NCBI GenBank assembly: GCA_014905635.1
Contig: CM026548.1
Coordinates: forward strand, 496,001-560,000
Origin: Scenedesmus sp. PABB004
Taxonomy: Eukaryota
Direction: 5' to 3'
DNA: 64,000 bases
The position numbers and the translations under genes are program-made. Positions 4,178 to 54,903 of this stretch are shown here, piece by piece. Under the pieces are notes generated by a model, which saw only the letters and a program-made list of their open reading frames with translations, was not told where the DNA came from and made no database searches. The stretch's first letter is position 1; every line of letters starts with the position of its first letter.

Positions 4178-6184
4178 ATGGCGGCCGGCCTGGCGCTGGA
4201 TCGTAATGACGAGCTGTATGCGGAGCAGGCCTGGCTGCTGGCGCAGCTGGGCGTGGAGCAGCCGCTGGGCGCCGAGCGGCCGCTGCACGACGCGGCGGCC
4301 GCTGCTCGCGTGCTGGTGCTGCGCGAGGTGCGGTCGCGGCCGGCCGGCAGCGGTCGCGGCGGGACCAGCAGCCCGCGGCACGTCCTGGGGCGCGGCCGCA
4401 GGCCGTTTGGTGCGACGTGCCGCCGCGCCGCCGCCGCGCCGCCCGCCGCGCGCCGCCCGGCCCCGCCGCGCGCCAGGGCGAGCTGTCGCAGCTGACGTGC
4501 GCCGCCGACCTGCGGCGGCCGCTCAACCCGCGCAACGAAGCGGCGGCGCTGTCGCTGCTCAGCGCGCACCGCGCCGCGCTGTGCGGGGGGTCGGCCGAGC
4601 GCGAGCGCGAGCTGGACGCGCTGCTTGCCGCCGCGCCGTTTGGCGGCGGCGACGCGGCCGCGGCTGAGACCGCCTGCGATGCCGGCTCGTGCGAGCAGCG
4701 GCTGTGCGACTGGGTGCTGGAGCAGGGCGGCGTGTCGCAGCTGCGGCCGGCGCTCTTCTGCGGCGCCGGCGGCGGCGGCGGCGCCGCGCTGCGCGGCCTC
4801 GCGGCGGCCGCCGACCTCGCGCCCGGCGCCGTCGCGCTGTCGCTGCCGGCGACGCTGCTCATAACGTACGAGACCGCGGCGTCGTCCGACTTTGGCCGCG
4901 CGCTGGCCGCGCTGGGGCTGGACGAGGAGACGCTGGCGGTGCTGTGGACCATGGTCGAGCGCTGGGACGCCGACTCGCCCGCGGCGCCGTTCTGGGCGGC
5001 GCTGCCGCCGCGCTTCCCCACCGGCCTCAGCGCGCCGGCGCCGCTCGCGGCGCTCGCCGCGGGGCTGCCGTGCGCGGGCGCGTTGGCGGCCGCGCGCGCG
5101 CACGTGCGCGCGCAGCACGCCGCGCTGGCCAAGGTCGTCGAGGCGCTGCTCACCGCGTACCCGCAGCACCTCCAGCCCGACTGGTTCAGCGAAGAGGCCT
5201 ACCTCTGGGCAGTGGACCTGTGGAATGCCTACGCGATACAGGCGCGCCACGCAGCAGCCGCCGCGCCGCGCCGCGCCGTGGCGTGCGACGTGCGACGCGC
5301 CGCCGGCGTCGCCGCCCCATCCCCCGCACGTTCGCCCGCCGCCCGCCGCCCGGCGCCGGCAGGTCCAGTTCCCCGACGGCGCCGTGCGCCCCGCGCTCGC
5401 GCCGCTGGTCAGCCTGGCAAACCACCGCCCTTGGCCGCACTGCGTGCGCTTCAGCCGCGTCGACGCGGGCGCGGGCGCGCTGCGCCTCGCGCCGTTCCGG
5501 CCGCTGCGCGCGGGGGACGAGTTTGCGCTGAGCTACGGCCCGCTGGCCAACGACAAGCTGCTGCTGTTCTACGGCTTTGCGCTGCGCGGCAACCCCTTTG
5601 ACACGGTGGAGCTCCAGCTGGACTGGGGCGAGCAGCAGGCGCAGCAGCAGCAGCAGCAGGAGCAGCAGGGCGAGCTGCGGGCAGCGGCGGAGGGCCTGCT
5701 GGCAGCGCTGGGCCTCGCGCGGGTCTTCACGCTGACCCCGCAGCAGCCGCTGCCGGCGGGGCTGCTGCCCTGCTGCCGCATCATGTGCGCGGGCCGCGCC
5801 GAGCTGGCGGCGATGCGGACTGCGCTGGCGCGCCACGAGCAGGCCACCCCCGGCGGCGGCGGCGGCGGCGGCAACGCGCTTCAGCGCGCGTGGGCGGCCG
5901 CCGCCGCGCGCGACGCGGTCGCGGGCGCGGCGCTGGGCGAGGCCGCTGAGGCCGCCGCGCGCGCACGGCTGGCGCGCGCACTGGCCGCAGCGCGCGCGCC
6001 GCACGAGGCCTGCCTGGCCAAGCTGTCGCGGCGGCGAGAGCTGCAGGCTGCGCTCGCCGCGCGGCTGCCTGCTGGCGCGGCGGCCGCGGCGGCGGAGGAG
6101 GAGGGATTCACGGCCTCCCTGGAGACGCTCTGCGACGGCGCGCTGGCACTCATCGCGGCGGCGGCCGAGGCAGCGGCGGTGTGA
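4178..6184 (+). CDS. SET-domain protein lysine methyltransferase (Rubisco LSMT/SETD3-like), 3 exons
   Basis: RGLAAAADLAPG...LSLP; ALAPLVSLANH; EFALSYGPLANDKLLLFYGFALRGNPFDTV. Intron 5242-5362 is GC-AG. Confidence 0.85.
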
Positions 6185-6314: not shown

Positions 6315-8636
6315 ATGGCGGCGCTAGCAGCTTGTGGACAGTGGCGCGCCGCGAGCGTGGCGCCGCTGCCACGCTCGCGTGCGAGCCGCGTCGTGCGCGT
6401 GCGCGCGAGCGCTGCTCACGCGACGGTGGAGCAGGTGGAGCTGGGGCGCTCAGGTGCGGCGGCGCGAGGGCGGCGCAGCGGCGTCGGAGGGCGCTGCTCC
6501 ACGCCCGGCGCGCTCCGCGCCGCGCGCTGCGCCGCGAACGGTCATTTGGGAGTCGGGGAGCGGTGGGCGAGCCGCCGCAGCTGCTCCGACCGCCGCTGCT
6601 CCGCCGCTGCTCCCGCCGGCAGGCGTCAAGGTGCCGCTCCTCGGCATCGGCGCGTGGTCCTGGGGCGACCGCAGCGGTTACTGGGGCTACGGCAAAGGCG
6701 CGCGCCCGCCCGCCCTCACGCCGCGCCCGCGCGCTGCCCTCGCTGAGCACGTGCGCCGCCGCCCGCCGCGCGCGCAGAGTACGGGCAGGACGCGTCGCGC
6801 GAGGCGTACGACGCGCTCACGGCGGCGGGGCTCAACTTCATCGACACGGCAGAGGCGCGGCGGCAGCGGCGGCGCGGCGGCGCGCGGCGGCGCGCGGCCC
6901 GGGACGGGCCGGGGCGCAGCGCGGCGGCGGGGCGTGAGCGCGCGCGCGAGCGAGGGCCGCGCCGTCCCGCGCGCCGCAGGTGTACGGCTTTGGCAAGAGC
7001 GAGGAGTTCATCGGCGAGTTTGCGGCCGCGAGCGCCGCGGCCGGCGCGCCGCCGCCGGTCGTCGCGACCAAGTTTGCGCCGCTGCCCTGGCGTTTGACGT
7101 CTGGCGCCGTCCCCGCCGCGTGCCGGGAGAGCCTCGGGCGCCTGGGCATGAAGCAGATCGCACTGTACATCCAGCACTGGTGCGGCGGCCCTGGGCTGCG
7201 GCGGGGTTAAGGCTATAATGGCCCACGGCCGGGGCCTTGGGCAGGCTGCGGCGGGCGGGCGGCGAGGGCATCACGCACCGCCCCTGTCACCCCCGCTGCC
7301 GCCGCCGGGGCTCTCGCGCAGGCCGGGCTTTGCGTTCAACGCCTTCAGCAATGACGCCTACCTGGACGGCCTGGCGGACTGCGTCGAGCAGGGGCTCACG
7401 CAGGCGCGGCGGCGGCCACCTGATGGCGGGGCTCGGCGTGCTGCGCTGTGCGCGCCGCCGCCGCCCGCCCGCCCGCGGCCAGCGCGCCGAGGCCGCGCCG
7501 CGCCGCGCCGCGCAGGCGGTCGGCGTGTCCAACTTCAACGCCCAGCGCGTCAAGGGCGCGGCGGCCGCGCTCGCGCGCCGCGGGACGTGCCTCAGCAGCA
7601 ACCAGGCGCGCGCCCGCGGCGGCGCGCCGGGCATGTGGCTCTGCGCGCTGACCATGGCCCTCCCCCCTGCCCCTCCCACGCGCGCTCACGCGGCCGCGCC
7701 CGCCCTCCCACACGCGCTCACCCCGCCTGCCCGCCTGCCCGCTGCCGCCGCAGGTCCAGTACAGCCTGCTCTACCGCACCCCGAGCGCAACGGCGTTCTG
7801 GAGGAGTGCCGCGCGGCGGGCGTCACGCTGGTCGCCTATTCGCCGCTGTGCCAGGGCCTGCTGACCGGTGCGGCGGGCGCGGCGGCGGCGGCGGGGCCGC
7901 GCCGCGTGCTCGCGCTGATGTGGGCGCCTCACCGCGCAGCGCTGACCGCCGCCGCCGGCCGCTGCAGGCAAGTACACGCCAGATGGCCCGCGCCCGACCG
8001 GCCCGCGCGGCAACATCTACAGCCAGAAGGCGCGGCAGCGCCGCGCGCCCAGGCGCCCGCGCGCACCCCAGCCTCCGCCCTTGCCCGCGCCGCGCGCAGC
8101 GAACGTGCAGCTGACCCTCGCGCCGCGCGCGCCCCGCTGCCGCTACGTCGGCGCGCAGATCCGTGAGATCCAGCCGCTCATCTCTGCCATGCGGGCGGTC
8201 GGCGAGCCGCGCGGCAAGACGCCCGCGCAGGCGCGGCGCCCGCGCGCGCGCGCGCCCGCGCGCGGCGGCGGCGCGCGGGCACGCGCGCGCTGGCCGCGCG
8301 GCCCTTGAGCCCACGCCCGTGGCCGCCCGCCGCGGCGTGCGCAGGTCGCGCTCAACTGGGTCATCTGCAAGGGCGCCGTGCCGATCCCGGGCGCCAAGAA
8401 CGCGCGGCAGGTCGAGGAGATTGCGGGTGCGCCGGCGCGCGCGGCGTGCGGCACACCCGCCGCCGGCGCAGCGCGCAGCGCGCAGTGCGCAGCGCGCAGC
8501 GCGCAGCGTTGACGCTTGATGATGACCGCGCGCAGGTGCGGTCGGCTGGCGGCTGGACGACGGCGAGGTCGCGGAGCTGGAGGCGGCGGCGGCCAAGGTC
8601 GCCACGCCGCTGGGCGCGCCGTTCGAGGCGTGGTGA
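6315..8636 (+). CDS. Plastid-targeted aldo/keto reductase (pyridoxal-reductase-like), 11 exons
   Basis: [79 protein letters not shown] after splicing. One probable 1-nt frameshift at about 7780. Confidence 0.92.
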
Positions 8637-8822
8637 TGACGCGGCGGCAGCGAGCGCGGCGCCGCGCCCGGGGCAGCGTCACGGCTGGGCTGCTGCTGCT
8701 GCGAGGAGGAGGGCGCGCCGCGAGGCGCCCTGGAGCACGAGCGGTAACAGGTCCGCCGCAGCCGCGGCGCTCGCGAGAAAACGCGCCGCCCGCCGCGCGC
8801 GCTCCGCTCATCGCCCTCGCCC

Positions 8823-11785
8823 TCACGCGCCCCGCTCCGCGCCGGCCTCCGGCACGGCGTCGAGCACTGCGTCCAGCTCGTTGTTGAAGAGCACCTTGGA
8901 GCGGTTGCTCCGCCCCACCACATACACGTCGCCGCCCTGCTGCAGCGCCCACACCTGCGGCGCGGCACGGCGCGGCGCGTCGCCGCCGCGCGCCGCAGCG
9001 CCTGCCGCCCCCCGCGCGCGGCGCCTGCCGCCCGCCCCCCGCCGCCGCGGCCCCAGCGGGCCGCGCGCCGCCGCGCCTGGCTGTGGCTGACGTAGCTGAT
9101 GAGGGTCGTGATCATGAGGCCGCCAAAGCCAGCGTAGACCAGCGGCACCCCGGGGTCGCTCTTGATCTCCAGGCCGGTGCTGCCGACGATGCGCTCGAGG
9201 ACGAGCCCCACGCCCTCGACCTGGCGGCGGTTTAGGCCAGCGGCGCGGCGCGGGGTCGGGCGCCGCCGGCGCGTGCGGGGTCGGGGGCCAGCGAGGCACG
9301 GAGGCGCTGCCGCGGGCGCGGCGGCGCCGCGAGCCCCGGGGCGCGCCCCGCCGCCGCCGCAGCGCGCAGCAGCGCGCGACTGCGCGGCTGCGCCGCGCAC
9401 CTCGATGGGCTTGCCAGACCCCGCGCGCCGCACGCCCACAAACTGGCCCTTGCTGTCGTAAAAGGTGGCGGTCTCGAGGTCCCGCGCGAGCACTGCGGCG
9501 GCGGGCGCAGCGCCGGGCGGCTCGGCCGCCAGGCGGCGCGGCGCGGCGCGCGCCGCCGCGCAGCGAGGGAGGGCGCGCGCGCGCGCACGGCGCGCGGCGC
9601 GCGGCCGCGGCGCGCACTCGAGATGCCGCGCGGCGGGCGACCGTCGTCGCCCGGCGGCTCGAGCGGGAGAAACGTGGCGTAGAGCTTCGCGCCCTCCGCG
9701 ACGCCGCCCTTGCCCTCCAGGCTCGCGAGCGGCAGGTTGAACGCGCGCGCCGGCAGCCGCGGCCGCCCCGGCGCCCCGCCGCCGCCCGGCGCCGGCTGCG
9801 CGCCCTGCGCCGCGGCCTCGCCCTGCAGCTGCTCCAGCAGCGCGCTCGCCGCCGCCGCGCCGCCGGCGCCGCCGCTGCCGCCGCCAGCGCCGGCGGCCTC
9901 GGGCTCCACCAGGCGCAGCGTGAGCGCGGCGAGGGACCAGTCGGTCTGATACATGGTCACGCCGCCCCACCTGCGCGGCGGCGGCCGGCGGCGGCGGCGG
10001 GCGCGCTGGGCCAGCCGCGGCTGCACCGGCTGCCTCGCACACAGTGCACACGAAGGCGCCGCAGCGCACAAGAACAGACGCACGCGGCCGAGCAGGCGAG
10101 CCCAGAAGGGGGGCGGCCGCGGCCGCACCGCCTCTGCCCACCTGAAGGGGTCGTTGACGGAGATCGTCTTGCGCAGCAGCTGCTGCCCGCCGGCGTCGCG
10201 CAGCGTGAGGTCGGAGTAAAACTGCGCGACGCTGCCGTCGGGCCGCGTGTCGATGCTGAAGCGGTTGACCTGGCGATGCAGCCGGCGGCGGCGGCGGCGG
10301 CGGGAGTGGTGGAAAAAAAAAGCTGAGCGGGCCCGGCGCCGCGCCGCGCGGCGGCAGCCATGCACACCCGCACGGCGGCCGCACCTGCAGCACCGTGCGC
10401 GCGCCGCCGGGCGTCGTCGCGAGCGCGCTCGCGGGGCGCAGCGCGTCGCCGACGACAAACTCCTGGCCCTCGGGGACCATCGCAGTGCCCTTCCAGCCGC
10501 CAAAGCCGCTGTACGCGGTGCCGCCGAGCACGAGCAGCAGCGCGGCGTGCACGCCGATCGGCCCGAGCCGCCCCGCGAGGCCCTTGAAGGCGTACAGCCG
10601 CCCGCCCTGACTGAACACCTGGTACGACCGCGCCGCCAGCCCCGCCGCGAGGTCGCCCAGCGCCGCGCGCGGGAGCACCGCCGGCGTGCCGTGGCGCGAC
10701 AGCGCGCGCGGCGAGTCGGCGAAGCGCCAGCGCCGCGCGACCTGCGGCCCCCCGCGGCAGCGGCGGCGGCAGCGGCGGCGGCGGCGACAACGGGGTCGGC
10801 GTGGGCCGGCCGCCTCCCGCCGCTGGCTCCGCCGCCCCTCCCCCGCCGCCGCCCGCCGCTCCCCCTCCCCTCCGCGTCCCGCGCGCCGGGGGCCGCGCCT
10901 TTGCCGCCGGCCACTGTGTCGTCGCGGTGCACGCGGCGAGGCTCGCGCCGAGCAGCGCGATGGCGGCGTAAAAGTACCAGGCCGAGTAGATGTGGTCCAG
11001 CCCGAGGCCCAGCAGGGCGTGGTAGTCCAGGAAGCCCAGCACGCGCTCGCCGTCGTCCGGGTAGTTGGCCACATAGTAGGCGAGCGGCTGCGCGGCGCGG
11101 CGCGTGGCGTGGCGCGGCGGCGCGGCGGCGTGGCGCGGCGGCGTGGCGGCGCGGCGGCCGCAGTTGCGTGGCGCAGGCAGACGGGCGCAGCGGGCGCGGC
11201 GGCGCGGCGCGCGCGAGAGGGCGGCGCGGGAGGCGGGGCGCGCCTTGTTTTGTGGGATGACGGTGCCGAGCGCCGAGAGCGCGGTGATGGCCGCCATGAT
11301 GGCGATCGCGCGCGGCAGGCTCGACAGCTCCCGCACGAGCCGCCGCCACGCCAGGCGCACGAGGCCGGGCGGCGCCGCCGCGGCGGCGCCCGGGCCGGCC
11401 GGCGCGGCGCCCGGCTGCTCCGGCGGCCGCGCAGCCAGCGGCGGCGGCGCCGCCGGCTGCGGCGCCGGCGGCGGCGCGCTGCTGCTGCTCACGTCCGGCG
11501 CCGGCTGCACGCTCAGCGGCTGCCGCCGCTGCTTGCCTGCGCGCCGGCGGCGCGGGGTGGGTGCGGCGTGAGCGCTGCGGGCGGCGCAGCAGCGCGCGTG
11601 CTGGCGGCGCCGCCCCGGCCCGCGCGGCCGCCGGCGCCAGCTGCGGGGCGGACGGGGGTTGCGGAAGCTCCCCGCCCACCTGACGCGCCCACGACGATCG
11701 CCCGCCGCGCCGCGCAGGGCCGGGCCAGGGGCCTCGCGAGCGGGCCCGCCACGCGGCCGCCCCGCGGCGCCAGCGCGGCCCTCAT
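8823..11785 (-). CDS. CCS1: Cytochrome c biogenesis protein CCS1 (CcsB/ResB family), plastid, multi-exon
   Basis: [11 protein letters not shown]...[104 protein letters not shown]. Confidence 0.95.
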
Positions 11786-12152
11786 GGCGGTCGCCGCCCG
11801 AGCGCACTGCGTTGTACCAGCTGCCCTCCACGCCCCCACGTCGCCGGGCGGCTGCGATTGGCGCGGGCGCGAGGCGAGCTGGTGCAGCGGGCTGGCGCGA
11901 CCGCAGGCGCGCAATCCGGGGCCGCAGCGACCGCGCGGGGGCTGCTGGAGCAGGGACACAGCCGGCGTGTTGCCATGCGCGGCGGCGGGGCATTGGCGGC
12001 GCCCCGCGGCGGCCGGCGCGGCCGCCAAACCGCGGCGACGTACGACGTACACCACGCGCCGCCCGCGCAGCCCCGGCTGTGGTGCGTCACTCTCAGGAAC
12101 TCAGCGCTCGCGCCTGACCAGCTTGCAGCCCGCCGCGTCGCCGCACGGCGCG

Positions 12153-13407
12153 ATGCTGCAGCGGCGCCTGGCGGCGGAGCGGACCAGCAGCGGCAGCCGG
12201 AGCGCGCGGCGGCTGCCAGCAGCCGCTGGCAGCGGCGCCGCCGGCGGCGGTTGCACGGCCCTGGCCCTGCGGCGGCGCGCGGTGCGAGCCGCCATCGCCG
12301 CAGCAGCAGCAGCCAGCGGCGGCGGCGGCCCGCAGCAGCCGCCGCCGTCTGCCGGCGCGCCGCCGCCGCCGCCGTCGCCGCAGCAGCAGCAGACGGCCGG
12401 GCGGGCGCGCCGCGCGGCGGCCGACGCCGCGGCGGAGGGCTGGGTCGTGAACAAGGCGCCGATCGGCGCGGCGATGACCCCCGCTCTCTACGCCTACCTG
12501 CTGGCGCACACGCGGGAGCACCCGCTGCTCGCGCAGCTGCGCGCCGAGACGGCGGCGCGGCACGGCGGGCACATGCAGGTCGCGCCGGAGCAGGGGCAGC
12601 TGCTCGCGCTGCTCGCGGAGCTGCTGGGCGCGCGGCGCGTGATCGAGGTGCGCGGCGGCGCGCGGCGCCGGCTGGCACAGCCGCCTGTGCTCTGCTCCGC
12701 CGTGCTGTCTGTCCCCCCACCCACACACGAGCACACCCACACACACACCCACAACCCCACCCACCCACCCACCCACACGCACACGCACGCACCCTCACCC
12801 ACACCCAGGTGGGCGTCTTCACCGGCTACTCCTCCCTCGCCGTCGCGCTCGCGCTGCCGCCCGACGGCGAGCTCGTCGCGCTCGACCGCGACGCCGACAG
12901 CATGGCCGTCGCGCAGCGGTGCGGCGCGCGCCGCGGCGCGGCGCGGCGCGGCGGCGGGCCCCGCGCACCCCGCGCCCTGCCGCGCCCTGCGCCGCGCCCT
13001 GCGCCGCGCGCGCGGCTGACCGCGCCGCCGCGCCGCCGCGCCGCCGCGCCAGGTACTGGGACGCCGCGGGCGTGGGCGGCGTCGTGCGGCCGGTGCTCGG
13101 CCCCGCGGCCGCGTCGCTCGACGCGCTGCTGGCGTCGGGGGGCGCGGGGCGCTACGACCTGGCGTTCATCGATGCCGACAAGCGCAGCTACGCGGCCTAC
13201 TTTGAGCAGTGCCTCGCGCTCGTGCGCGCCGGCGGGCTGATCGCGGTCGACAACGTGCTCTTTTACGGCAAGGTCGCCGACCCCGGCGCGGCCGACAAGG
13301 CGACCGTCGCGCTGCGGGCCTTCAACGACGCGCTCGCGGCCGACGCCCGCGTGTCTGTCGCGGTCGTGCCGGTCGGCGACGGCATGGCGCTCTGCCGCAA
13401 GCGCTGA
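12153..13407 (+). CDS. Class I SAM-dependent O-methyltransferase (CCoAOMT/COMT-like, Methyltransf_3), 3 exons
   Basis: MQVAPEQGQLL, RVIEVGVFTGYSSL, YDLAFIDADKRSY, GGLIAVDNVLFYG, VPVGDGMALCRK. Confidence 0.93.
12714..12806 (+). repeat. Intronic CA/CCCA-rich microsatellite
   Basis: Directly visible, in intron 1 of the O-methyltransferase. Confidence 0.8.
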
Positions 13408-15218: not shown

Positions 15219-16858
15219 TCAGGCCATGGCCGCGGCGGCGCGGTCGAACAGCTCCTCGCCCGCCGCGGCGCGCAGCGCGGCGGGGTGGTTGGGCGCCACG
15301 ATCTTGAGCTGACTCGCGTAGCGCGCCGTGTTCTTGCCCAGGTGCAGCCCCACCTGGCGGCGGCGGCGGCGGCGCGGCTCGCGCGCGCGCCGCGGGGCGG
15401 CGCGTGCAGCGCGCCGCCGCCGCCGGCGCCGCCGCCGCCGGCGCCGCCGCCGCCGCACCGTGACGAGGTTGGCGAGCGTGTCGGGCTCCTTGGCGTCGCG
15501 GCCGAGCGCCTCGAGCAGGTCCCGCTCCGCGTCCTCCCACTCGCCCATCTTCATGTGGCACGTCGCGAGGCCGTTGTGCAGCGGCGCCTGCGCCGCGTGC
15601 CGCGCAGCGCGCGGCGCGGGGTCGGCCGGCAGCACGCGGCGCAGGGTCGGCCGGCGCCGCGCGCGGGCCGGCCGGCCCCACGGCCGCCGCGCGCTGCAGC
15701 CGGCCCCCGCCGCGCCGCGTGCTGCGCCCGGCCCCCGCCGCCGCTGCACGCACCGTCCAGGTGAACTTGTCGCCGAGCTCCTGGTAGATGTAGCTCGCCT
15801 CCTGCACCTTGGCGCCGCCGAGCGCGACACCCACCCATGCGGTCGCGAGCTGCGTCACCGTCGCGTCGTCGTCGATAGCGGACATCGCCTGCGGTGGTGG
15901 TGGTCGCGGCGGTCGCGGCGGCGGCGGCATCGGCGGCCGCGGTCACGGCGGCACCACCACGCGGCGCCGCCGCGCCGCGCAGCCGGCAGACGCCGCCCGC
16001 CGCGCACCTTGGCCTGCGCCTCTGCCTTGTCTGGCCGGTCCATGGCGAGGTACACCTGCACGCACAGCGCCAGCCTGCGGGGCAGCAGGCGGGGGCACGC
16101 GCGCGCGCGTCGGCGCCGCCCGCCGCTGGCCATGGCCGCGGCCGCGCTGCCCTGCTTGGCCGGCGCGTCGCCCGTGCCTCGCCCGCGCGCCGCCCGCGCG
16201 CCGCACATCTCCAGGCTCTGCCCGCCGTGGCAGGCCTTGAGCGCCTCGACGTGGTTGCCCTCGCTCGCAAAGATCAGGCCCGCGACCAGCAGCACGTGGG
16301 GGTTGGTGTTGCAGATCGGGTCGGCCACCCACGCCGACACCTGCTCCAGCGCCGCCTCCTGCCGGCCCCGCGCACGCGGCGGCGCGGGCGTCGGCGCGTG
16401 CGGGCGCCGGTGCGCTGCGCTGCGCTGCGCGCGGGCTGCCGCAGCGACGCCGGCGGTCGGGGGGCAACAGCGCCGCACCTTTGCTATCCGGCCGCCCATG
16501 TACTGCGCCAGCAGCTTCACCGCCTGCAGCGCCATGGGCGCGGAGTCCTTGATTTCGCTGAGCACCAGCTGCGGCGGCGGCGGCGGCGCGGGGCGGGGCG
16601 GCTCGGCGCGCGCCGCAACAGCTGCAGCAGCAGCAGCAGCGGCGCAACCGCCCGCGCTTGCGCGGCCCGCGCGGCGCCCCGACCGCGTCGCACGTCGGTG
16701 CTGCCGAGCGCGATGTAGGAGCGGTACACGAAGACGTCGCGCTCGGTCTGCTCCGCCTCCGAGAGGCCCTCCATGTCGCTGGCCTCGTTGATGGCGTTGT
16801 TGTACGCGCCGATGTAGAAGTTGTTCTTCACCGCGAACAGGATGTCGCGCTCCGCCAT
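15219..16858 (-). CDS. COPE: Coatomer subunit epsilon, 7 exons
   Basis: [69 protein letters not shown]. Confidence 0.96.
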
Positions 16859-35464: not shown

Positions 35465-37102
35465 TCACTTGATCGCGGGCCGCCAGCCCGCCGCGCGCGC
35501 CTCGGCCTCGCTGCAGAAGTAGCGCTCGCCCGCGGCCTCGTCGATCTGCACCTGTGCACCGCAAGCGGGCGACGGCTGTCGGCGCGAACGGGCATGGGGG
35601 GGAGGAGCGGGCCGGCGCGGCGCCGGCGCTGCAGCTCGCCGCACCGCGAGGTACTGCCCGCTGGTGATGGTGTGGTAGATCTTATCACCTTTGGAGTTGA
35701 TGTTGCCCTTGACGACCGGCCCCGCGCACGCCGTCGCAAAGTTGGCGCGCGGCGGCGCGGCCGGCGCGCCCGCGGCGGCGGCGGCCGCGTACGAGCGGCC
35801 GGCCGCGGCGCCGGGCGGCGGCGGCGCCGCGGCGCGGCGCGGCGCGGGCGCGGACGCGGGCGCGCCGCCGCCGTCGACGCTGCTGAGGCTGTCCAGGCCG
35901 CCCGGCGGCGGCGCGCCGCTGAGCACCTGCGCGGCCTTCTGCTGCCGCCGCCAGGCCGCCGGCTCGGTGAAGCGGCCCTGCCAGATGCCCTTGCGCGTCG
36001 CGTGGGCCTTGTCCTCCAGCACCACGTACTCCTTGCCAAACTGCCTGCGCGGCGGCGGCGGCGGCGGCACGGCGGCGGTGGCGGCGGCGGCTGGGCGGCG
36101 CTCGCGCAGCGGCGCGGCGCGCGAGGGCCTGCATCGGCGGGCCCCGCCGCCGAGCGCCCCCCCCCCCCCGGCAGTGCGCGGCGGTGGCCGCGCCGCTCAC
36201 TTGTACGCGACAGCGTGGCCCTGCGAGACGAGCCAGGCGCCCATGTCCTCGCTGCCGCGGCCGCCGTCGAGGATGGCGCAGGCCGCGACGTTGCGGCCGT
36301 ACTGATCCTTGCTCTTCACCTCGCAGCGCACGGCGCGGCTGCCCACGCGCTCCTTGAGCGCCTGCAGCGCGACCTGTGGGCGCCCGCGGCGGCGCGCGGC
36401 GGCGGGGCGCGCGTGCAGGGTGTGTGTGTGGGGGGGGGGGGGGGGGGGGGGTGGGGGAGGGGGCGCTGTGGGCGCGCCAACCCCGCGCGCGCAGCAGCTG
36501 CGTGCGCCGCCGCGGCGCGTCGCCCGCCTGGCCGCAGGCGTACGCCTCGCCCTGCGCATTGGCGCAGGACTGTGCCTTCTCCGGCGCGTCGACAGCATAC
36601 AGCCGGATCTTCTCGCCCTGCACGTACAGCGTGTCGCCGTCCACGATGCGCGCGGGGCCTGCGGCGCAGCGGCCGCCGCGACGGCGGCGGCAAGGTCGGC
36701 GGCCGGGCCAGCCCGCGCGGCGCGGCGCGGCGACGGCGGCGGCGGCGGCGGGTCGGCGCCGCGAGCCAGCCCGCGCGGCGGCGGCGGCGGCGGCGGTGCC
36801 CCACCCTCGAGTACGCCCAGGCTGGCGGTGGCGGGGCCCGTCCCTGACGAGAGCATCAGCAGCCCCGCCAGCAGCACCGCGCCGGCCTGGCCGGCCGCGT
36901 CGGGCCTGCGCGGGGTCGGCAGCAGCGGCGCGCGGGTGTCGGCGGCAGCGGCGGGCCCGCGCGGCCCGTGCGCCGCGCCGCCTCGCCTGGCAGCTGCGAC
37001 CGCGGGGCCGACGCGTCGTCCCGAGCGGGCAGGGCAGCGCGGTGGCAGGCCCTGCGGCGGCGCCAGCCCGCCGCGCGCGACAGCGGCGGCGCGCAGGCGC
37101 AT
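35465..37102 (-). CDS. Bacterial-type thermonuclease (SNase family) with C-terminal ExoI-like domain, 5 exons
   Basis: GPARIVDGDTL...IRLYAVDAPEKAQ.C, KDQYGRNVAAC, WLVSQGHAVAY, A...RKGIWQGRF..P..WRR, C..VKGNINSKGDKIYH...Y....IDEAAGERYFCSEAEARAAGWR. Confidence 0.88.
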
Positions 37103-45956: not shown

Positions 45957-48900
45957 CTAGCCCGCCGCCTCGCCCGCCAGCGCCGCGGCGAGCGCCACGA
46001 GCGCGCCGCCCGACAGGCCGGGCAGCCGCGCCGCGAGCCGCGGCACCCACGCGAGCGGCTGCTCCGCCGCGCCGCCGCCGCCCGCCGCGCACTCGGCGGC
46101 CGCGCCGGCGAGCGCGCGCTGCACGTCGGCCGCGCACGGCACGCCCAGCAGCGACAGCGCGCTGCCCAGCGCCGCCTCGGCCGCCGCCCGGTCGGCGCCG
46201 GCGCCGGGCAGGGTGGCGGCCGCATCCCGGACGCTGCCGGTCGTGACAAAGGCCCGCAGCGCGCTCGCGCCTCGCCGCGTGCCGCCGGCCGCCGGCCCTC
46301 CGGGCAGGCCCTCCGGCAGCACGCCCGCGGCGCGCCAGCGCTGCTGCAGAAGCTTGCCCAGGCCGTCGCAGAAGCCTGGCTGCAGCAGCGGCGCCCAGCC
46401 GAGCGCCTCGACCTGCCACGGCGGGGCCGCCGCCGCGGCGGGCGCGGTGGCCGCCGCCGCCTGCCCCGCGCGGTCGGCCGCCGCGACCGCGGCGCGCCGG
46501 CAGAGCTCCGCCGCCGCCGCGGTGCTGCTGCCATAGTGCACGAGCGCGAGCGCGAGGTCGGCCAGCGCGACCGCCGCGCCCGGCGCCGGCGCCGCGCCCC
46601 AGCAGCAGGCGCCGCCGCCGCCGCCGCCGCCGGGCGCCGCCGCCAGCCAGCCCGAGCCGCCGCCGCTCGCGGCGCCGCCGCCCGCGGCGCCGCCGCCGTC
46701 TGCGCCGCGCAGGCCCGCCGCCGCCGCGGCGCTGCGGTGCGCCAGAGAGTAGAGCTGGAGGTACCACGGCAGCGCGGCGGTCTTCTCCTGCACGATGCAC
46801 TCATACAGCGCGCCGTGCGCAAAGCCCAGGAACGCGGCCGCGCCGCCGTCGGCCGCCGCGCCGTCGGCCGCCGCGGCGAGCGCCGCCGCGCCGCGCAGCG
46901 CGTGCGCAAACGCCTGGACGTGTGGGTCGGCCGAGAAGGTGGAGCAGAGCTGCACGATGTCGGCCGCCGCGCCGCCGCCGCCGGCGCTGCCCGCGGCGCC
47001 GCCGCCGGCAAAGGCCTTGAACAGCAGGCTCTTCACGCCCGACGGGTCATCAGTGTAGGCGAGGCTGCTGGCCTTCTTCTTGACGCAGATGCGCTGCTGC
47101 AGGTACAGCTGGCTCCAGCCGGCGCCGCCGGCGTCGCCAGCATCGCTGCGCCCCGACCCCTGGCCCCCGTCGCCGGCGACGACCTGGAGCGGCCAGTAGC
47201 GCGGCCCGCACACCGCGAGCGACGCGAGGTGCGCCCGCTCCGGCAGCAGGCAGGGCGCCTGGCGGCGGAAGCTGACGAGCTCGCCGCAGTCGGGCCCCGC
47301 CGCCGCCGCCGCGGGCGCGCCGCCGTCCGCCGCCCGCTCCTCGCCGCCGCCGGCGGCCGCTGCAGCTGCAGCCGCCGCCGAGGCGGCGCCGCCGCCGGAG
47401 AACGCGGGCGGTGGCAGGCGCGCGCCGCCGCCGCGCCGCGCCGCCGGGCCGGCGGCGCGCGGCGACCAGGCCATCGCCTCTGGCCCGCCGCGTGCGTCAC
47501 TGCCGGCCGCCGCCGCCGCCGCGCCGCGGTAGGGCGGCGTGGGCCCGCACTGCGTGGCCTTGCGCGCCGCGATCTGCAGCGGCACCACGACCTGCCGGCG
47601 GCTGTGCACGTCGAGCGCCTGCAGGCAGCGCGGCTCGACCGCGAGCACGTAGAGGTGCCGAAACGCCTGGCGGCGGCGGGGTAATTGTCGGCAGGCGGCG
47701 GCAGCGGAGCACGTCAGCGGCAGCGGCGGCGGCCCGCAGCAGGGGCGCGCAGCGCGGCGCCGCGCCCCGCCGCGGCGGCGCGCGCGCGCGCGCCTGCAGG
47801 TGCGCAAGCTGGTCGGTCGGGCTGCGCGGCCAGGCCGGGTAAAGGGCGATCAGCAGCGCGGCGACGGCCTCGTTGCTCGTGCTCAGGCTGGCGCGGCCGC
47901 CGCTGAGGAAGAGCAGCCCCGCCGCGAGGCTGACCGCGAGGTGGTGGCCGTAGGAGATGCTGCCGCTGCCGGCGCCCGGGCCGCCGAGCAGCGCGGCGAC
48001 GCCGCCCGGCGGCGGCGCGCCGTCGGGCCCCGCCGCGCGCAGCGGGCCGCACGCGCGCCGGCTGAGCGCCTGGACCAGCCGGAAGGTGGGCAGGTGCCCG
48101 CTGCCCGCCATGACGAGGGACAGCGCGAGCACCACGACCACCAGCGCGTCCTCCAGCGCGCCGCGGTCGAGCTGACCGACGCAGGCGCCGCCCGGCGCGG
48201 CCGCGATGCCGACGCCCGACGCGCTGCCCGCCGCCGCGGCCGCGGCGGCCGCCGCGACGGGCGCGAGGCTCGCGTCGTTGGGCCCGCCCGGCGCGCGGCG
48301 CTTGGCGGCGAGCAGCTGCAGCGCGTGGCCGCGCAGCAGCGCCTCGGCGTGCGCGTTGCAGGTCCCCGCGAAGCGCAGCCCGAGCGCGAGGCACGCGCCC
48401 GACAGCGCGTGCACGTGCGCGAGCCCGAGCGCGCCCCAGTCGGGCGCGGCGGGCGCGCCGCCGCCGGCGCCGCCGCGCAGCGCGCGCGGCAGCGGCTTGC
48501 CGGCGCCCGGGTCGCCGCCGCCGCCGCCGCCTGGACCGGGCGCGGCCAGCATGCTGTCCAGGATGCGCGGCAGCGGCTGGTCCAGCAGCGGCCCCAGCTG
48601 CGCGCCCACCCACTCCTGCGGCAGCGCGCGGCGGGCGGTCGGCGGCACGCGGCGGCGCGGCGGGCGGTCGGCGTGCGCGCCGCGACGGGCGGGCGGCCGG
48701 GCCCGCCCGGGGGCCGCAGACAGGGTGTCGCGCGTGCGTGCGCGTGCGCGCGCCTGGCTGGCGGCGATGCCGTCCCACATGACGAGCGCGCGGCCCAGCA
48801 CGCTCAGCGTGACCATGTCTGGCCGGAGCTGGTCCAGGGCGTAGAGCGTGTCGGGCACCTGCGGCGCGCCGCGGCGGCGCGCCGAGCGGCGGGGCGGGGC

Positions 48901-51900
48901 CAGGGTCGCGCGGCGGGCGCGGCTAGCGCCGGCTGCGCCCGCGCGCGCGGCGAGCGGAGGGCGCGGGCGCGGAGACGGACGGCGGGCGCGGGCGCAGCGG
49001 CTGCGGCGCGCGCAGGCATGGCGGCGGCAAGCGCGGGCGCGCCTTGAACGTCGCCGCGACGTCTGCGTCGCCCGTCTTGAGGTGGATGAGCATCAGGGCC
49101 ATCGCCGCGGCGGGGCCCGCGACGACGCTGTGCACGCCGGGGCCCTTGAGCACGGTCTGGCGGCGCGCGCGCGCGCGCGCGTGCGCGGCCGCACGTGGGC
49201 GGGCGCGCGCGCGCGCGCGCGGGCGGGCCGGCGGGCGGGCAAGGGGCGCTGGCGGACGGGCCCGCGGCGTGGGCGGGGGCGGGGCGGGCGCGCACCTGGG
49301 AGATGCCATACTGCTGCATCGCCTCCGCGTCCAGCTTCACGCCGCCGCCGTCGCCGCGGCCGCCCGCGGCGTCGTCGCTGAGCAGCGGGTCGCGCGGCAC
49401 CACGCCCGCGCCGAGCACCGAGTCGAGCAGGCTGCCGGGCCGCGCACCGGGCAGCGCCGGCGCGCCGCCGTCGCCGCCCGGCCGCGCGCCCGGCGGCGGC
49501 GCCTTGCGCACAAACGCGTGCGGCTGGGTCACGCCGCCCATGAGCGACCTGGCGGCGTCAGGCGGCGGCGGGCGGCGGGCGGCGGGCGGCGCGGTGGCAC
49601 AGCGGAGGTCACTGGCGAGCCCGCCCAGCTCCGGGCGCCGCGCGCGCTCGCGGCCGGCGAGCGCGGCGCTGCGCGCGGGGGGTGCCGCGGCGTCGGCGGG
49701 CGCGCTGCGCTGCGCTGCGCTGCGCTGCGCTGCGCTGCGCTGCGCTGCGCTGCGCTGCGCTGCGCTGCGCTGCGCTGCGCTGCGCGGGGCGGGGCGCCTC
49801 ACCGCAGGCGGTCCTCGAGGTGGAGGTCGGCCAGCCCCGGCGCGCTGCGGCCCTGGGCGAGGCAGGTCAGGCCGAGGCCGAGCCCCGCCGCGAGCGCGTA
49901 GCCCTCGCGGTCGTGGCTCACACCCATCGCCGCGGCGAGGCCGCCGCCGCCGGCGGGGCCGCCGCCGCGGCGGGGCCGGCGCCGCCGCCGGCGGGGCCTG
50001 GCCGTGGCCTGCGCCGGCGCCGGCGCCGCCGGGCGTGCGCGCGAGCTCCTCCAGCAGCGTCTCGGTCATGAGGCGGTGGCACGTGCCCTGGTACAGCAGA
50101 CCCAGCCCCAGCAGCGACGCGGCCTGCGCGCGTGCACGGCCGTGGGTGGGCATGGGTGTGTGGTGTGTGGGTGTGTGGGTGTGTGGGTGTGTGGGTGTGT
50201 GGGTGTGTGGGTATGTGTGTGTGGGGGGGGGGAGCCTTGGCCGCGACGACGCGGGGCGGCTGCTGCGGCGCGGGGCGGCGCGCCGCGCGCGCCGCGCCTG
50301 CACGTGGGGCGAGAGCTCAATCTCTGGGAACGAGCTGGGGTGGCGCGCGGGGAGGTGCAGGAAGAGCATGCGCGCGACCGTCGCGTCGGCGGCGCCGCGC
50401 GACGCCGCGGCCATGCCGAGCAGCACCGCGATCGTCGTCGCGTCGTGCTGGTCGGACAGGTACCTGCCGGGCGGGCGGGCGAGCGGGCGGGCGCGCGGGC
50501 GGGCGGGGTGCATCATAGCGCGCGGGGCTTGGGGGCTGCAGGGCTCAGCCGCGCGGCCGCGCCGCGGCGGGGGCGAGGGGAGCACGGCGCGCGCGCGAGC
50601 TGGGCCGTCTGACCCGAGCCCCGAGCCCCCCGGGGCCCTTTGGGGTGTGCTCACCGATAGAGGTCGGTCCAGCTGAGCCGGTCCAGGTGGCCCGTCAGGC
50701 CCAGCGCGAGCAGCAGCCCCGCGTGCGCGTAGTTGGGCACGGCCGGCCGGTTGTGCGGCCGCCACGCGTCCGCCAGCGACTCCCCGCCGCCGCCGTCGCC
50801 GCCGCCGCCGCCGCCGCCGCGCGGGCTGCTCCCCCGGCGGCGCGCCCTTGGACTGGTGGCGGTGCGGCGCGCGGCGGCGCGCGCGCGGCGCGATGCGGAC
50901 GCCGGCCGCGACGCCGTTGTGGAACTCACACCACGCCGTCACGTCCGCCGCCGCGCCGCCGCCTGTCCGGGGGCGGGCGGTGGCGGGGGCGCGTGCGCGC
51001 GTGAGCGTGCGGTTCGCGAGCCCACCGCGCGCTGCGCCGCGCGCCGCGCCCGCCGGCGCGCCGGGCGCCCACCTGGCGCGGGCTGGGCGTGCGTGAGGTC
51101 AAGGTTGATCACCACGCGCCCGCCCGCGGCGCCGTCCTCGCCGCCGGGGCCCGCAACGACGCCGGAGAGGCAGAGCAGCGGCACCGCGAGCCGCTCGCCC
51201 GGCAGCGGGTCGCACAGCCCCAGCGTGAGCGCGCCGCGGCCGAGCGGCAGCGCCAGCGTGCGCATCGCGCTCGACAGCAGCGCCGCCTGCTGCTTGGCCT
51301 GCAGCTCGGGGTCGTTGTCCGAGGCGGCCACCTGCGCGCGCGGCGGCGCGCGGTCGGCGCGCGGTCGGTGCAGCACGCGGCGCGGGTCGCACACACGCGC
51401 GGCAGCCGCGGCGTGGCGTCGTCCCACCAGCACCGCACACGCGCACACGCGCGCGCGTATAGCGCCAACGCGCGCGCACCGCGAGCACCACGGGCACATT
51501 TGTGCCGAGCAGCGCCTTGACCTCCGCCAGCCGCGTGTCGCGGCCAAAGCGCAGCTCCGACATGCCGCCCGTGAGCCCCTCCATGCCGTCGATCGGCAAC
51601 CCCAGCTCGCCCACCACGCCGCCGCCGGCGGTCGCCGGCGCCGCCGCCGCGGCGCCGCCCGCGCCCGCGCCGCCGCGCAGGCCGCGGCCCCAGGGCCGCC
51701 CCCCGCGGCGCGGGCCGCCGCCGACGGGCCCGCCGGCGCTGGGCTTGAGCCCCGGCTGCGTGGCGCCACTGAGGGGCCGGAACGACTGCTGCCCCTGGCC
51801 CCTGAGCAGCGCCGCGTTGGGCAGCTGCAGCCGCTGCTCGCACGGCAGCAGCAGGTGCTGCGGGCGCTGCTCCGCCGAGACAGCCCCGCCCTCGCACACA

Positions 51901-53466
51901 CCGCCGGCCGTGCCCCCGCCGCCTCCCGCGTGCGCGCCGCCGCTGCCGGGGCTGCTGCCGCTGCGCCGCGCGGGGCCGGCCGCCGCGCTGGCGGCGGCCG
52001 CCGCCCCGCCGTTGCTGGCGAGGGTGGCTGCCACGTCCTCGCGGCCGATCAGAGCGTACGCCATCGCCGGCCAGCCTGCGTGGGCGCGGCGGCGGCGGCG
52101 GCGGCGGGGCTTAGCTCTCACGCCAAGGACGAGGCGGCGCGCCAGGCCCGGCCCCGTGCGGCTGCCCCCCCCCCCCCCCCCGGGCGGCGCACCTGGCGGC
52201 GGGTTGGTGCGGCAGCGCAGCAGCGCCTCGCGCAGCGGCAGCGCCACGCCCAGCGCGAGGTCGTCCAGTGCCAGCACGTCCCAGCCCTGCCGCACCAGCA
52301 GCAGCACCAGGCGCTGGCTGGAGCGCAGCAGCAGGTGCTCGAGCTCGGCCGCGAGCGCGCCCGGCGCGCCGGAGCCGCCGGGGCCGCACAGCAGCGCCAG
52401 CACAGCAGCGTCGCCGCCGCCGCCCGGCGCCGCAGCCGTGCGCGCCGCCGCGGCCACCGCCGCAGCACACGCGGCGGCGCAGCCGGACAGCTCCCGGTAC
52501 GCTTCCAGCAGCTGGCAGGAGCGGCGCACGGCGGCGCTGCCGTGCGCCGCAAGCCACGGCACGTGCGCCGTGTGCTCGCCCGACGCCGTCAGCAGCGCCG
52601 CGAGCGCGCGCACGATGCTGCCCGGCGGCGGCGGCGCCGCGCCGCCCAGCAGCGGCGCCGCGGCCGCGGCGCCCGCCGGCGGCGCGCGCTCCGCGAGCGC
52701 CGCGGCCGCACCGCACAGCTGTGCGCTCGCTGCTGCCAGGCCCGTGGGCGGCGCGTCGCGCTCGTAGTGCTCCCGGTGCGGCCCCGCGCCCAGCCAGCCC
52801 GCGAGCGTCCAGCAAAGCGGGCCCAGCAGCGCGAGCGCGTGCTGCGTCAGGCGGCTGAGCTTGCAGTCCTCATACACAGAGTGCAGCGCGCGCAGCGCCG
52901 CCGCGACCTCGCGCGCGTGCGCCTCGCCCGCCTCGCCCGCCCGCACCGGCGGCGCGGCCGGTGCCTGCAAAGGCACGGGCGCGGGCGCCGGCGCCGCCCC
53001 GCGCTGCCGCAGGCATGGCAGCGACCGCAGCAGCTGCTCGCTGCGCTGGCTCGCGAGCAGCGCCTCCCACGCGGCCTCGCCCGGCAGCCGCTGCTCGCGC
53101 TCCTGCGCGCCCCCGGCGGCCGGGAAGTACGCGGCAGCGTCTCCGCCGTCGCGGGACAGCTGCTGCAGCCGGCTCGCCAGGCGCGCCGTGGCGACGGACG
53201 CCGGCGTTCCCGCCGCGCCCCCGGCGCCGCGCGGCCCGGTCGCGCCTGTGTCGAGTGACATGGCCACTGAGCCGCCGGATGCAGCCGAGCCCGGCGGCGG
53301 CGCGGCGCCGCCGGGCGCGGCCGCGCGGCGCGCTGCTGCCGCCGGGTCGGGCGTTGCCATCTCCATGTCGTCGGCGTCGCTGCTGCCGCCGTCGCTGCCG
53401 GCTGGCGCGCTGCCGCCCACCGCCGGGCTGCGCAGCGCCGCCGGCCCAGCCGGCGAGCGCGGCAGC

Positions 53467-53503
<37 letters not shown>

Positions 53504-53996
53504 GCAGGCGCGCAATGCAGGCGGGGTCGAGCGCCCACGCCAGCACCACAGTGGCAATCGACCGCCACTCGGCGCCGAGGTGGCCGCTGCACGCGCCTGC
53601 GTGGACGGCGGCGCGCGCGCGGTAGCGTGGGCGGCGCACGGACCTCCCAACTGTTGGCATCCCTCGCCCCGTCATCGCCACTCACCTGGCTGCACCAAGC
53701 AGGCCGCCAGCAGCTGCACGAACCGCTCCGCCGGCAGCGCCTCCTGCAGCGCCTGCAGCACCTGCACCGGCATCGGCAGCCACGCCAGGCGCAGCCGCGC
53801 GCGCACGCCCAGCGACGACGGCGCCCGGCCGGCGCTGCTGGCCGTCGGCCCAGCGGCGGCGAGCTGCACGCTGAAGCGGTCGCCGGCCGGGCTGCTGAGG
53901 CCCACAACGTGCAACAGCGCCGCAGCCGCCGGAGCGCCCGGTGTCAGCTGCGCCGCATCCTGCTGCACCCAGGGCGCGCCGCCGACAGTGGAGGCT

Positions 53997-54027
<31 letters not shown>

Positions 54028-54903
54028 CGGGGCTGGCTGCCGGGCCGGAGTGCAGCGCAGCCGCGGCACCAGAGCGCAGCATGCGCGCGCCGGCCAACCT
54101 GGAGACATGGGCACGTCATCATCCGAACCCTCTCCCTGCTCGTCCGGCGCTGAGCGGCACGCCAGGCTCGACCGCGAGACCGGCCGCCACGCGCCGCCCA
54201 CCTCGAGCGCCCGCAGGCAGGCCGCCGGCAGCTGCACGCGCACACGCACGAGCGGCCACGCGCCGCGGTGCAGCAGCAGCTGCCCGCCCGGCTGCAGGAC
54301 CAGCAGGTCCAGCAGCCGCCCGCCGCCGCTGGGCGACGGGAAGCCTGTAGCCACCGGCACCGCCGCGAGCGCAGCGATGCTGAACGCCGGCTGCACGGCG
54401 ACGCCCTGCCCCGCGGCCGCGCCCCTGTGGTGCGAGCGGCGGCCCGCAGGCGCGAGGCGCGCGTGAGCAGCAGGCGTGCGCGGGCCCTGAGCGCGGCCGC
54501 AGCGCGTCGAGCCAGCCGCCGCTCACGGCGACACGCGGAACGCCAGCAGCTGCCCGCCGCCGCCGCCGCCGGAGCAGAGCACGCAGAGCAGCGGGCAGCC
54601 GTCGGCGTCGGTGGCGAGGCGCGCCTCGCGCGGAGCGAGCCCCCCAGCGAGCTGCTCCTGGCACGCAAGCTGAAACAGGAGGCTGGGGTCGGGCCCCGGC
54701 AGCAGCAGCGCCTGCTGCGCCTGCGTCGTGTTGCTGAAGCACGGCCGCAGCACGCCCAGCGCGCCGAGGCCGCCCGCCCAGGGCGTCTGCGTGCCGCCCT
54801 GGGGCGTGGGGTTGAAGATGCCCGCGGGCAGGCAGCCCGCGGGAGTGCGCAGGCTGGAGCGCCGCGCCGTGCTCGCGCCGCCGCCCGACATCGCCGTGCC
54901 GTA

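Follow-up and report, generated by a model that had tools for sequence, protein, structure and literature searches.

Thirteen of the 28 introns that we could resolve in a 64,000-nucleotide stretch of DNA from the green alga Scenedesmus sp. PABB004 (GenBank assembly GCA_014905635.1, contig CM026548.1, positions 496,001 to 560,000; hereafter 'the window', within which all coordinates are counted) begin with GC rather than GT, and each of these 13 follows an exon that ends in AG. Comparisons with homologous proteins support the conclusion that such GC donors are real and frequent, and the composition of the window and of the verified introns supports a tie to extreme GC content. With a probability of roughly three in four, we consider them to be genuine U2-type introns that carry C at donor position +2 as a result of GC-biased pressure, with exonic AG compensating for this change. 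A reading of the same DNA made without database searches (the sequence-only reading) had proposed at least 15 GC donors, of which 13 were verified and two, in a SET-domain gene and a nuclease gene, are plausible by eye.

The window has a G+C content of 70-84% in every 2-kb bin, with most bins at 77-84% (~80%). The complete genome is listed with 39.8 Mb, 78.5% GC and 7,092 genes (PMC12571836, Table 1), in a paper whose main text uses neither the word 'intron' nor the word 'splice'. Open reading frames of at least 60 amino acids take up 118,298 of ~128,000 possible six-frame residues, such that almost the whole of the six frames is open, and open reading frames alone are therefore uninformative in the window. 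Exon translations match proteins of chlorophycean relatives (Tetradesmus, Scenedesmus, Volvox and Chlamydomonas), and annotated PABB004 proteins named 'CCS1' and 'coatomer subunit epsilon-1' each match one exon with 100% identity.

Intron boundaries were located by a procedure that makes no assumption about splice sites. All combinations of an intron start with an intron end within 30 nucleotides on either side of the approximate exon ends were enumerated, and those that preserved the reading frame without a stop codon were kept. The joined peptide of ~24 residues was then scored against homologues (BLOSUM62), and the terminal dinucleotides were inspected only afterwards. Thirty junctions were enumerated in four genes, which encode an aldo/keto reductase (AKR), the cytochrome c biogenesis protein CCS1, the anaphase-promoting complex subunit APC1 and coatomer epsilon. 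Two junctions were left out of the tally, namely CCS1 junction 1, which lies in the transit-peptide region, and APC1 junction H (around 50889/50779). The 28 resolved junctions comprise 13 GC-AG and 15 GT-AG introns, with GC-AG accounting for 6 of 10 in AKR, 3 of 7 in CCS1, 4 of 5 in APC1 and 0 of 6 in coatomer epsilon. Eleven of the 13 GC-AG pairs are in the top-scoring set, and the other two score at most 2 points lower. The acceptor is AG in all 28 introns, usually with C before it and G after it. The resolved introns are 80-191 nucleotides long and have a GC content of 85-89% (23 counted, in AKR, CCS1 and the coatomer gene).

The AKR gene is the richest in GC donors. Three proteins from chlorophycean algae (P0002, P0003 and P0007) served as the homologues for scoring its junctions. 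For six of its ten introns, a GC..AG pair is in the top-scoring tie set and a GT..AG pair never is, as evident from the scores listed here (a slash marks the exon-intron boundary in nucleotide strings and the junction in peptides).

6315 (ATG) to 8636 (stop), + strand: AKR gene, 11 exons and 10 introns (6 GC-AG, 4 GT-AG)
6698-6777, + strand: GC-AG intron AKR2, aag/GCGCGC, GYGK/EYG; top score 135.0, best GT-AG 70.0
6855-6979, + strand: GC-AG intron AKR3, gag/GCGCGG, DTAE/VYG; top score 104.3, no GT-AG alternative
7404-7515, + strand: GC-AG intron AKR5, cag/GCGCGG; top score 112.0, best GT-AG 69.0
7606-7753, + strand: GC-AG intron AKR6, cag/GCGCGC, SNQ/VQYS; top score 103.7, best GT-AG 65.7
8030-8158, + strand: GC-AG intron AKR8, aag/GCGCGG, SQK/IREIQ; top score 102.7, no GT-AG alternative
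8231-8344, + strand: GC-AG intron AKR9, cag/GCGCGG, PAQ/VALNW; top score 111.3, no GT-AG alternative
6454-6622, 7180-7321, 7868-7967 and 8427-8535, + strand: the four GT-AG introns of AKR, from the same enumeration

All six GC-AG introns lie at exactly the coordinates proposed by the sequence-only reading, including 8030-8158, which it had ranked least certain. For three of the four GT-AG introns, its coordinates were 1-2 nucleotides away from the positions given here. Removal of the ten introns yields a product of 364 amino acids that ends in FEAW followed by the stop codon and shares 80% identity with P0002 across 329 amino acids, with one gap block. A metagenome scan with the AKR alignment kept 80 loci, all of which are intronless (cDNA-like or bacterial).

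Junctions in CCS1 were scored against P0035, P0046, P0047 and P0036, and those in APC1 against the corresponding segments of representative homologues. The span given for APC1 is the extent of its homologue matches rather than a full gene model.

8826-11785, - strand: CCS1/ResB cytochrome c biogenesis gene, 8 introns (3 GC-AG); annotated protein P0034 is 100% identical
8955-9076, - strand: GC-AG intron CCS1_8, cag/GCGCGG, SHSQ/VWALQ; top score 102.5, best GT-AG 62.5; in the annotated model
10742-10898, - strand: GC-AG intron CCS1_3, aag/GCGCGG, PAAK/VARRW; top score 98.2, no GT-AG alternative; in the annotated model
11088-11243, - strand: GC-AG intron CCS1_2, aag/GCGCGC, QNK/PLAYY; score 90.0 against 92.0 for a non-canonical top pair, best GT-AG 44.0; in the annotated model
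45960-54399, - strand: APC1 gene, identified by Pfam (APC1_C, Apc1_MidN) and tblastn
47667-47793, - strand: GC-AG intron APC1_G, cag/GCGCGC, AHLQ/AFRHLY; top score 79.4, no GT-AG alternative
48616-48753, - strand: GC-AG intron APC1_F, cag/GCGCGC, IAASQ/EWVGAQ; top score 80.5, best GT-AG 32.5
48859-49042, - strand: probable GC-AG intron APC1_E, aag/GCGCGC, ATFK./.PDTLY; score 47.0 against 47.7 for a non-canonical top pair, best GT-AG 28.7
50124-50297, - strand: GC-AG intron APC1_B, cag/GCGCGG, SPHVQ/AASLLG; top score 78.5, best GT-AG 59.5
15222-16858, - strand: coatomer epsilon gene (control), 6 of 6 introns GT-AG at top score

For CCS1, the enumeration gives three GC-AG and four GT-AG introns and leaves the first junction, in the unconserved transit peptide, without a call. 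Exact mapping of the annotated protein P0034 onto the window yields an identical set of eight introns, the three GC-AG ones among them. Six junctions were enumerated in APC1, of which four are GC-AG, one is GT-AG (50654-50464) and one is without a call. The CCS1 donors at 9076, 10898 and 11243 and the APC1 donors at 47793, 48753, 49042 and 50297 had all been proposed from the sequence; five of these belong to top-scoring pairs, and those at 11243 and 49042 score just below a non-canonical pair (90 against 92, and 47.0 against 47.7). The coatomer epsilon gene, which was not among the genes picked by the sequence-only reading, yields GT-AG at all six junctions, indicating that the enumeration is not biased towards GC.

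The public model of this last gene, 'coatomer subunit epsilon-1' (P0154; 13634-16858, - strand), is a chimera of 644 amino acids, compared with 290 amino acids in relatives. After five correct introns it leaves out the final exon of the coatomer gene (15222-15353) and runs on, through a 531-nucleotide 'intron' (15458-14928), into a downstream cysteine-rich Sushi-like gene.

Donor composition and the exonic AG rule

All 13 verified GC donors read AG/GCGCG, followed by G or C. The sequence-only reading had given GCGCG or GCGGG as the start of these introns, and the second form is confined to the nuclease donor, which is not among the 13. It had described GT donors as mostly GTGCG, and this start is found in 13 of 15 cases, with one GTGGG and one GTGAG. 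Considered together, the 28 donors are invariant for G at +1, +3 and +5, while 26 carry C at +4 and 26 carry G or C at +6. Positions +3 to +5 read GCG in 13 of 13 GC donors and in 13 of 15 GT donors, such that the intron side (G[C/T]GCG[G/C]) is equal in the two types.

The difference between the two types is on the exon side. An exonic AG precedes all 13 GC donors but only 6 of 15 GT donors, whose exon ends are varied (Fisher exact p=0.0008). Viewed from the exon, GC follows 13 of 19 exons that end in AG and none of nine exons that end otherwise. These counts agree with the earlier claim that GC donors always follow exonic AG, a pattern also seen at both putative donors described below. Donors that read AG/GTGCGG are present too (introns AKR1, CCS1_4 and COPE2). 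With the canonical 5' end of U1 small nuclear RNA (snRNA), GC donors can form 5-6 base pairs and GT donors 5-8.

In GC 5' splice sites generally, C at +2 mismatches U1, for which the remaining donor positions compensate by matching better on average (PMC3167603). The exonic AG at 13 of 13 GC donors in the window fits this rule. Since the intron side is the same in GC and GT donors, the compensation would be located entirely in the exon, at A -2 and G -1, and no stronger GCAAGT-like match is present within the introns, in agreement with the sequence-only reading. The strict dependence of GC donors on exonic AG is supported by these data, and it is what exon-side pairing predicts.

Introns of the U12 type start with the consensus /[AG]TATCCTT and, close to their 3' end, carry a branch site that resembles TCCTTAAC. 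Neither signal was found in the GC-AG introns, as all 13 donors read GCGCG[G/C] and the branch motif is absent from the intron tails. The U12 type was ruled out on the basis of the missing donor motif and, given that neither minor introns nor minor snRNAs are reported to exist in Chlorophyta (PMC11347168), the introns are assigned to the U2-type GC-AG class. Shifted boundaries of the form AG..GC or GG..CA would produce the same mRNA, but no known intron class matches them. A search with Rfam at gathering thresholds gave no matches, and thus no snRNA gene, within the 64-kb window. The strings AGGCGCG and AGGTGCG occur 67 and 36 times, respectively, on the two strands of the window; these counts carry no weight here, given that the dinucleotide GC outnumbers GT sixfold in this DNA.

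The resolved introns are poor in A (2-17 A residues in 27 of 28), which leaves few branch-point candidates. Within the last 60 nucleotides of the 28 resolved introns, most carry C[C/G/T]GA[C/G] at 22-55 nucleotides upstream of the AG; candidates were examined, for example, in introns 9493-9617 and 48859-49042 (both - strand). In two introns the candidate motif holds the sole A of the examined stretch (GCCGAGC at -30 and CGCGACC at -48). The branch signal may be GC-shifted as well, C or G taking the place of the T in CTRAY.

Origin of the GC donors

The explanation that we prefer combines substitution pressure with a limit on donor strength. GC-biased substitution pressure, whether from mutation bias or biased gene conversion, would turn T at +2 into C, and this C would survive only where the rest of the donor still holds the spliceosome. 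A threshold on total donor strength would then permit only exons that end in AG to carry GC. The exonic AG would restore two pairs with the U1 5' end, plus contacts with U5, in place of the pair lost at +2. The intron side would keep the GCG at +3 to +5 that it shares with GT donors, and donors that follow exons without a terminal AG would remain GT. Splice-site GC has been reported to correlate with genome GC (PMC7072748). An ordinary spliceosome would suffice for all of this. What the data show are the intron positions, their GC..AG ends and the AG rule; the pressure behind the substitutions, the compensation by pairing and the role of an ordinary spliceosome are inferred. The sequence-only reading had suggested either a variant U1 snRNA or a greater reliance on exon-side pairing; the frequencies of exonic AG (13/13 for GC and 6/15 for GT donors) favor the latter, and a variant U1 is not needed.

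A change in the splicing machinery itself might nevertheless underlie these introns. For example, the 5' end of U1 might accept both C and U at +2, or pair with C at +4, and contacts with U6 or U5 might have co-adapted, in which case GC donors would not be weak sites. Such a change would account for the unusual intron side that both donor types share (C at +4 and G or C at +6), which fits the canonical U1 sequence poorly, as well as for the great frequency of GC donors and the apparent GC shift of the branch candidates (C[C/G/T]GA[C/G] rather than CTRAY). However, the strict need for AG indicates that C at +2 still carries a cost, as an unchanged U1 predicts, and the ordinary spliceosome handles GC-AG introns elsewhere in eukaryotes (PMC3167603). 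We therefore regard altered machinery as unlikely.

Several points weigh against the explanation based on GC pressure and exonic compensation, or limit how far it can be extended. The GC junctions of CCS1_2 and APC1_E score slightly lower than a non-canonical pair, and the evidence for all junctions is indirect, coming from homologous proteins and the annotated CCS1 model. The sample is of four genes, three of which had been chosen by the sequence-only reading for their GC donors. Genes added to these give 0 of 6 GC donors (coatomer epsilon) and, by eye, 0 of 2 (O-methyltransferase; introns 12648-12808 and 12919-13052 are both GT-AG, as judged by eye and from Pfam profile coordinates). Given this selection and the added genes without GC donors, the genome-wide share may be well below 46%; our honest estimate of the GC-AG share within the window is a third to a half. 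The pairing counts involve the canonical U1 sequence and not the U1 of Scenedesmus sp. PABB004. Finally, the AKR gene carries an apparent frameshift, which could mean that it has recently become a pseudogene or that there are errors in the assembly.

This frameshift is an apparent one-nucleotide deletion in AKR exon 7 (7779-7783, + strand), located at a run of four C residues. The peptides LLYRT and PERNGV lie in different frames around this site, and the spliced coding sequence of 1094 nucleotides is a multiple of three minus one. The shift reflects either an assembly error at a homopolymer in long reads or a very recent frameshift mutation. A homologue search with an AKR exon found no annotated AKR protein with 100% identity, which the frameshift may explain.

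If consensus or base-calling errors can place an indel in a conserved exon, as this site may illustrate, they could conceivably also have made GC from GT. Consensus errors in long reads are mainly indels. An artefact of this kind would require T-to-C changes at the +2 positions of 13 of 28 donors, while ~330 aligned AKR codons stay 80% identical to the homologue with one gap block, and the errors would have to spare every donor that lacks a preceding AG (0/9). A systematic misreading of AGGTGCG as AGGCGCG was rejected, since AG/GTGCGG donors persist unaltered. We consider it very improbable that the assembly created the GC donors.

Decay of dying genes, in which GT donors drift to GC under GC-biased mutation, appears to us just as improbable. 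It draws on the facts that AKR, with the most GC donors (6 of 10), is the gene with the apparent frameshift, and that no identical annotated AKR protein was found. AKR is otherwise undamaged, however: exon ends and acceptors are preserved, as is its 80% identity to homologues. Three GC donors are present in CCS1, an intact and annotated gene with an essential function, and four in APC1. Decay also would not select AG ahead of every GC. This process could apply to AKR at most.

Gene content and repeats of the window

Two further GC donors proposed from the sequence are not anchored by homologues and stand outside the tally of 28.

5242-5362, + strand: putative GC-AG intron in the SET-domain gene, cag/GCGCGC; frame switch; plausible by eye
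36374-36527, - strand: putative GC-AG intron in the SNase-type nuclease gene, cag/GCGGGC; plausible by eye

The exon downstream of the SET intron weakly matches SETD6/SETD3 chains in a PDB sequence search (E=0.002), and the same search gave no match for the upstream exon. The exon downstream of the nuclease intron matches positions 26-78 of the Pfam SNase profile from exon residue 2 onward, and the upstream exon had no match in the PDB sequence search or in Pfam. The downstream SET exon was the sole match in the PDB searches, and the downstream nuclease exon was the sole match when Pfam was run on single exons.

Other genes were mapped by a Pfam scan of 384 stop-free open reading frames of at least 100 amino acids, which is insensitive for short exons.

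1-1482, + strand: CCCH zinc-finger gene (Pfam)
~12.4-13.4 kb, + strand: O-methyltransferase gene (Pfam)
~33.6-35.4 kb, - strand: TPMT-like gene (Pfam)
~37.3-38.6 kb, + strand: PEMT/ICMT-like gene (Pfam)
~39.9-45.4 kb, + strand: CFAP65/DLEC1-like gene (Pfam)

Genes are tightly packed, as seen at 8636-8826 and 11785-12400. At the first of these sites, the stop codons of AKR (8636, + strand) and CCS1 (8826, - strand) lie tail to tail with 190 nucleotides between them. In Tetradesmus obliquus, homologues of AKR, CCS1 and coatomer epsilon are found on one contig (locus tags 012580, 012602 and 012596), which suggests that the linkage of these three genes is conserved.

Short tandem repeats occur inside introns, for example at 50124-50297 (- strand), 12700-12808 (+ strand) and 8455-8505 (+ strand). 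Repeats of the CCCACACA type are present in APC1 intron B and in intron 1 of the O-methyltransferase gene. In AKR intron 10, a repeated GCGCAGC heptamer places five decoy AGs upstream of the true acceptor. A repeat at 49700-49800, when read on the APC1 strand (-), gives repeated AAQRS in one frame.

Relation to known GC-AG systems

The background assumed by the sequence-only reading, that GC-AG introns make up about 1% of the total in most eukaryotes, is incomplete, as genomes rich in such introns are already known (PMC4028052; bioRxiv 10.1101/2024.10.30.620910). Among 121 plant and algal genomes, GC-AG introns average 1.2% (PMC6310983). The introns described here resemble the ordinary GC-AG introns of animals and plants (about 1% of introns; PMC3167603) in being U2-type, in having a C at +2 that mismatches U1, and in that the rest of the donor compensates. 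They differ in that their frequency in our PABB004 sample is some 30-40 times higher, and in that compensation is confined to the AG at -2/-1 of the exon, while the intron start GCGCG[G/C] is no better than that of local GT donors.

Our full-text literature searches, which covered a library with few of the many subscription papers and the main texts of genome papers, turned up no account of GC-AG introns being abundant in PABB004 or in any green alga. The introns are already implicit in the deposited data, given that the public CCS1 annotation contains them. A broader proposal is that close to half of all introns in PABB004 are GC-AG, which would make it the first such organism of the green lineage and the most GC-rich such eukaryote so far, and that its donors (G[C/T]GCG), its branch site (C[C/G]GA[C/G]) and its snRNAs (the U1 5' end and the branch-binding region of U2) have co-evolved with base composition. 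We hold this to be unlikely. If it were true, PABB004 and its close relatives of ~57% GC (Tetradesmus obliquus and Scenedesmus sp. NREL 46B-D3) would constitute a pairwise natural experiment on how recognition of the 5' splice site and the branch site depends on genome composition.

There are also consequences for annotation, because gene prediction tuned to GT-AG will split or merge genes in genomes of this kind. The public annotation of PABB004 has only 7,092 genes (PMC12571836); within the window, AKR has no identical annotated protein among the matches to its exon, and the coatomer epsilon model is chimeric. Moreover, the occurrence of GC only after AG offers a quantitative read-out of the donor strength that is needed as GC pressure erodes T at +2.

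Intermediate frequencies have been predicted for the pelagophytes Aureococcus anophagefferens and Pelagomonas calceolata, where GC-AG introns amount to 14-17% and are attributed to high GC, compared with 0.32% in the lower-GC Aureoumbra (bioRxiv 10.1101/2024.10.30.620910). These shares are lower than that in our sample, belong to a stramenopile lineage and come from gene predictions.

The closest parallel is the haptophyte Emiliania huxleyi, in which GC donors account for 56-64% of junctions, including 56% of 241 curated junctions and 61% of Cufflinks junctions (PMC4028052). Nine GC junctions were confirmed there by reverse transcription PCR, and there are Sanger-verified cases (Feldmesser et al., 2014; PMC4028052). 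Its authors attribute the GC donors to a genome GC content of 65% and report that GT-centered ab initio models mispredict junctions. Both organisms have a high-GC nuclear genome and canonical AG acceptors, and GC-AG introns are numerous in E. huxleyi and among the junctions resolved in the window. They belong to different supergroups, however, and PABB004 has the higher GC content (78.5%). The share in E. huxleyi is backed by transcripts, whereas the ~46% for PABB004 comes from a small, partly selected sample and from sequence. For the exonic AG rule of PABB004, we found no corresponding statement in the portions of PMC4028052 that we consulted. The introns described here would extend the E. 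huxleyi phenomenon to Viridiplantae, and they suggest that a shift towards GC donors follows generally from extreme GC content rather than being peculiar to one lineage.

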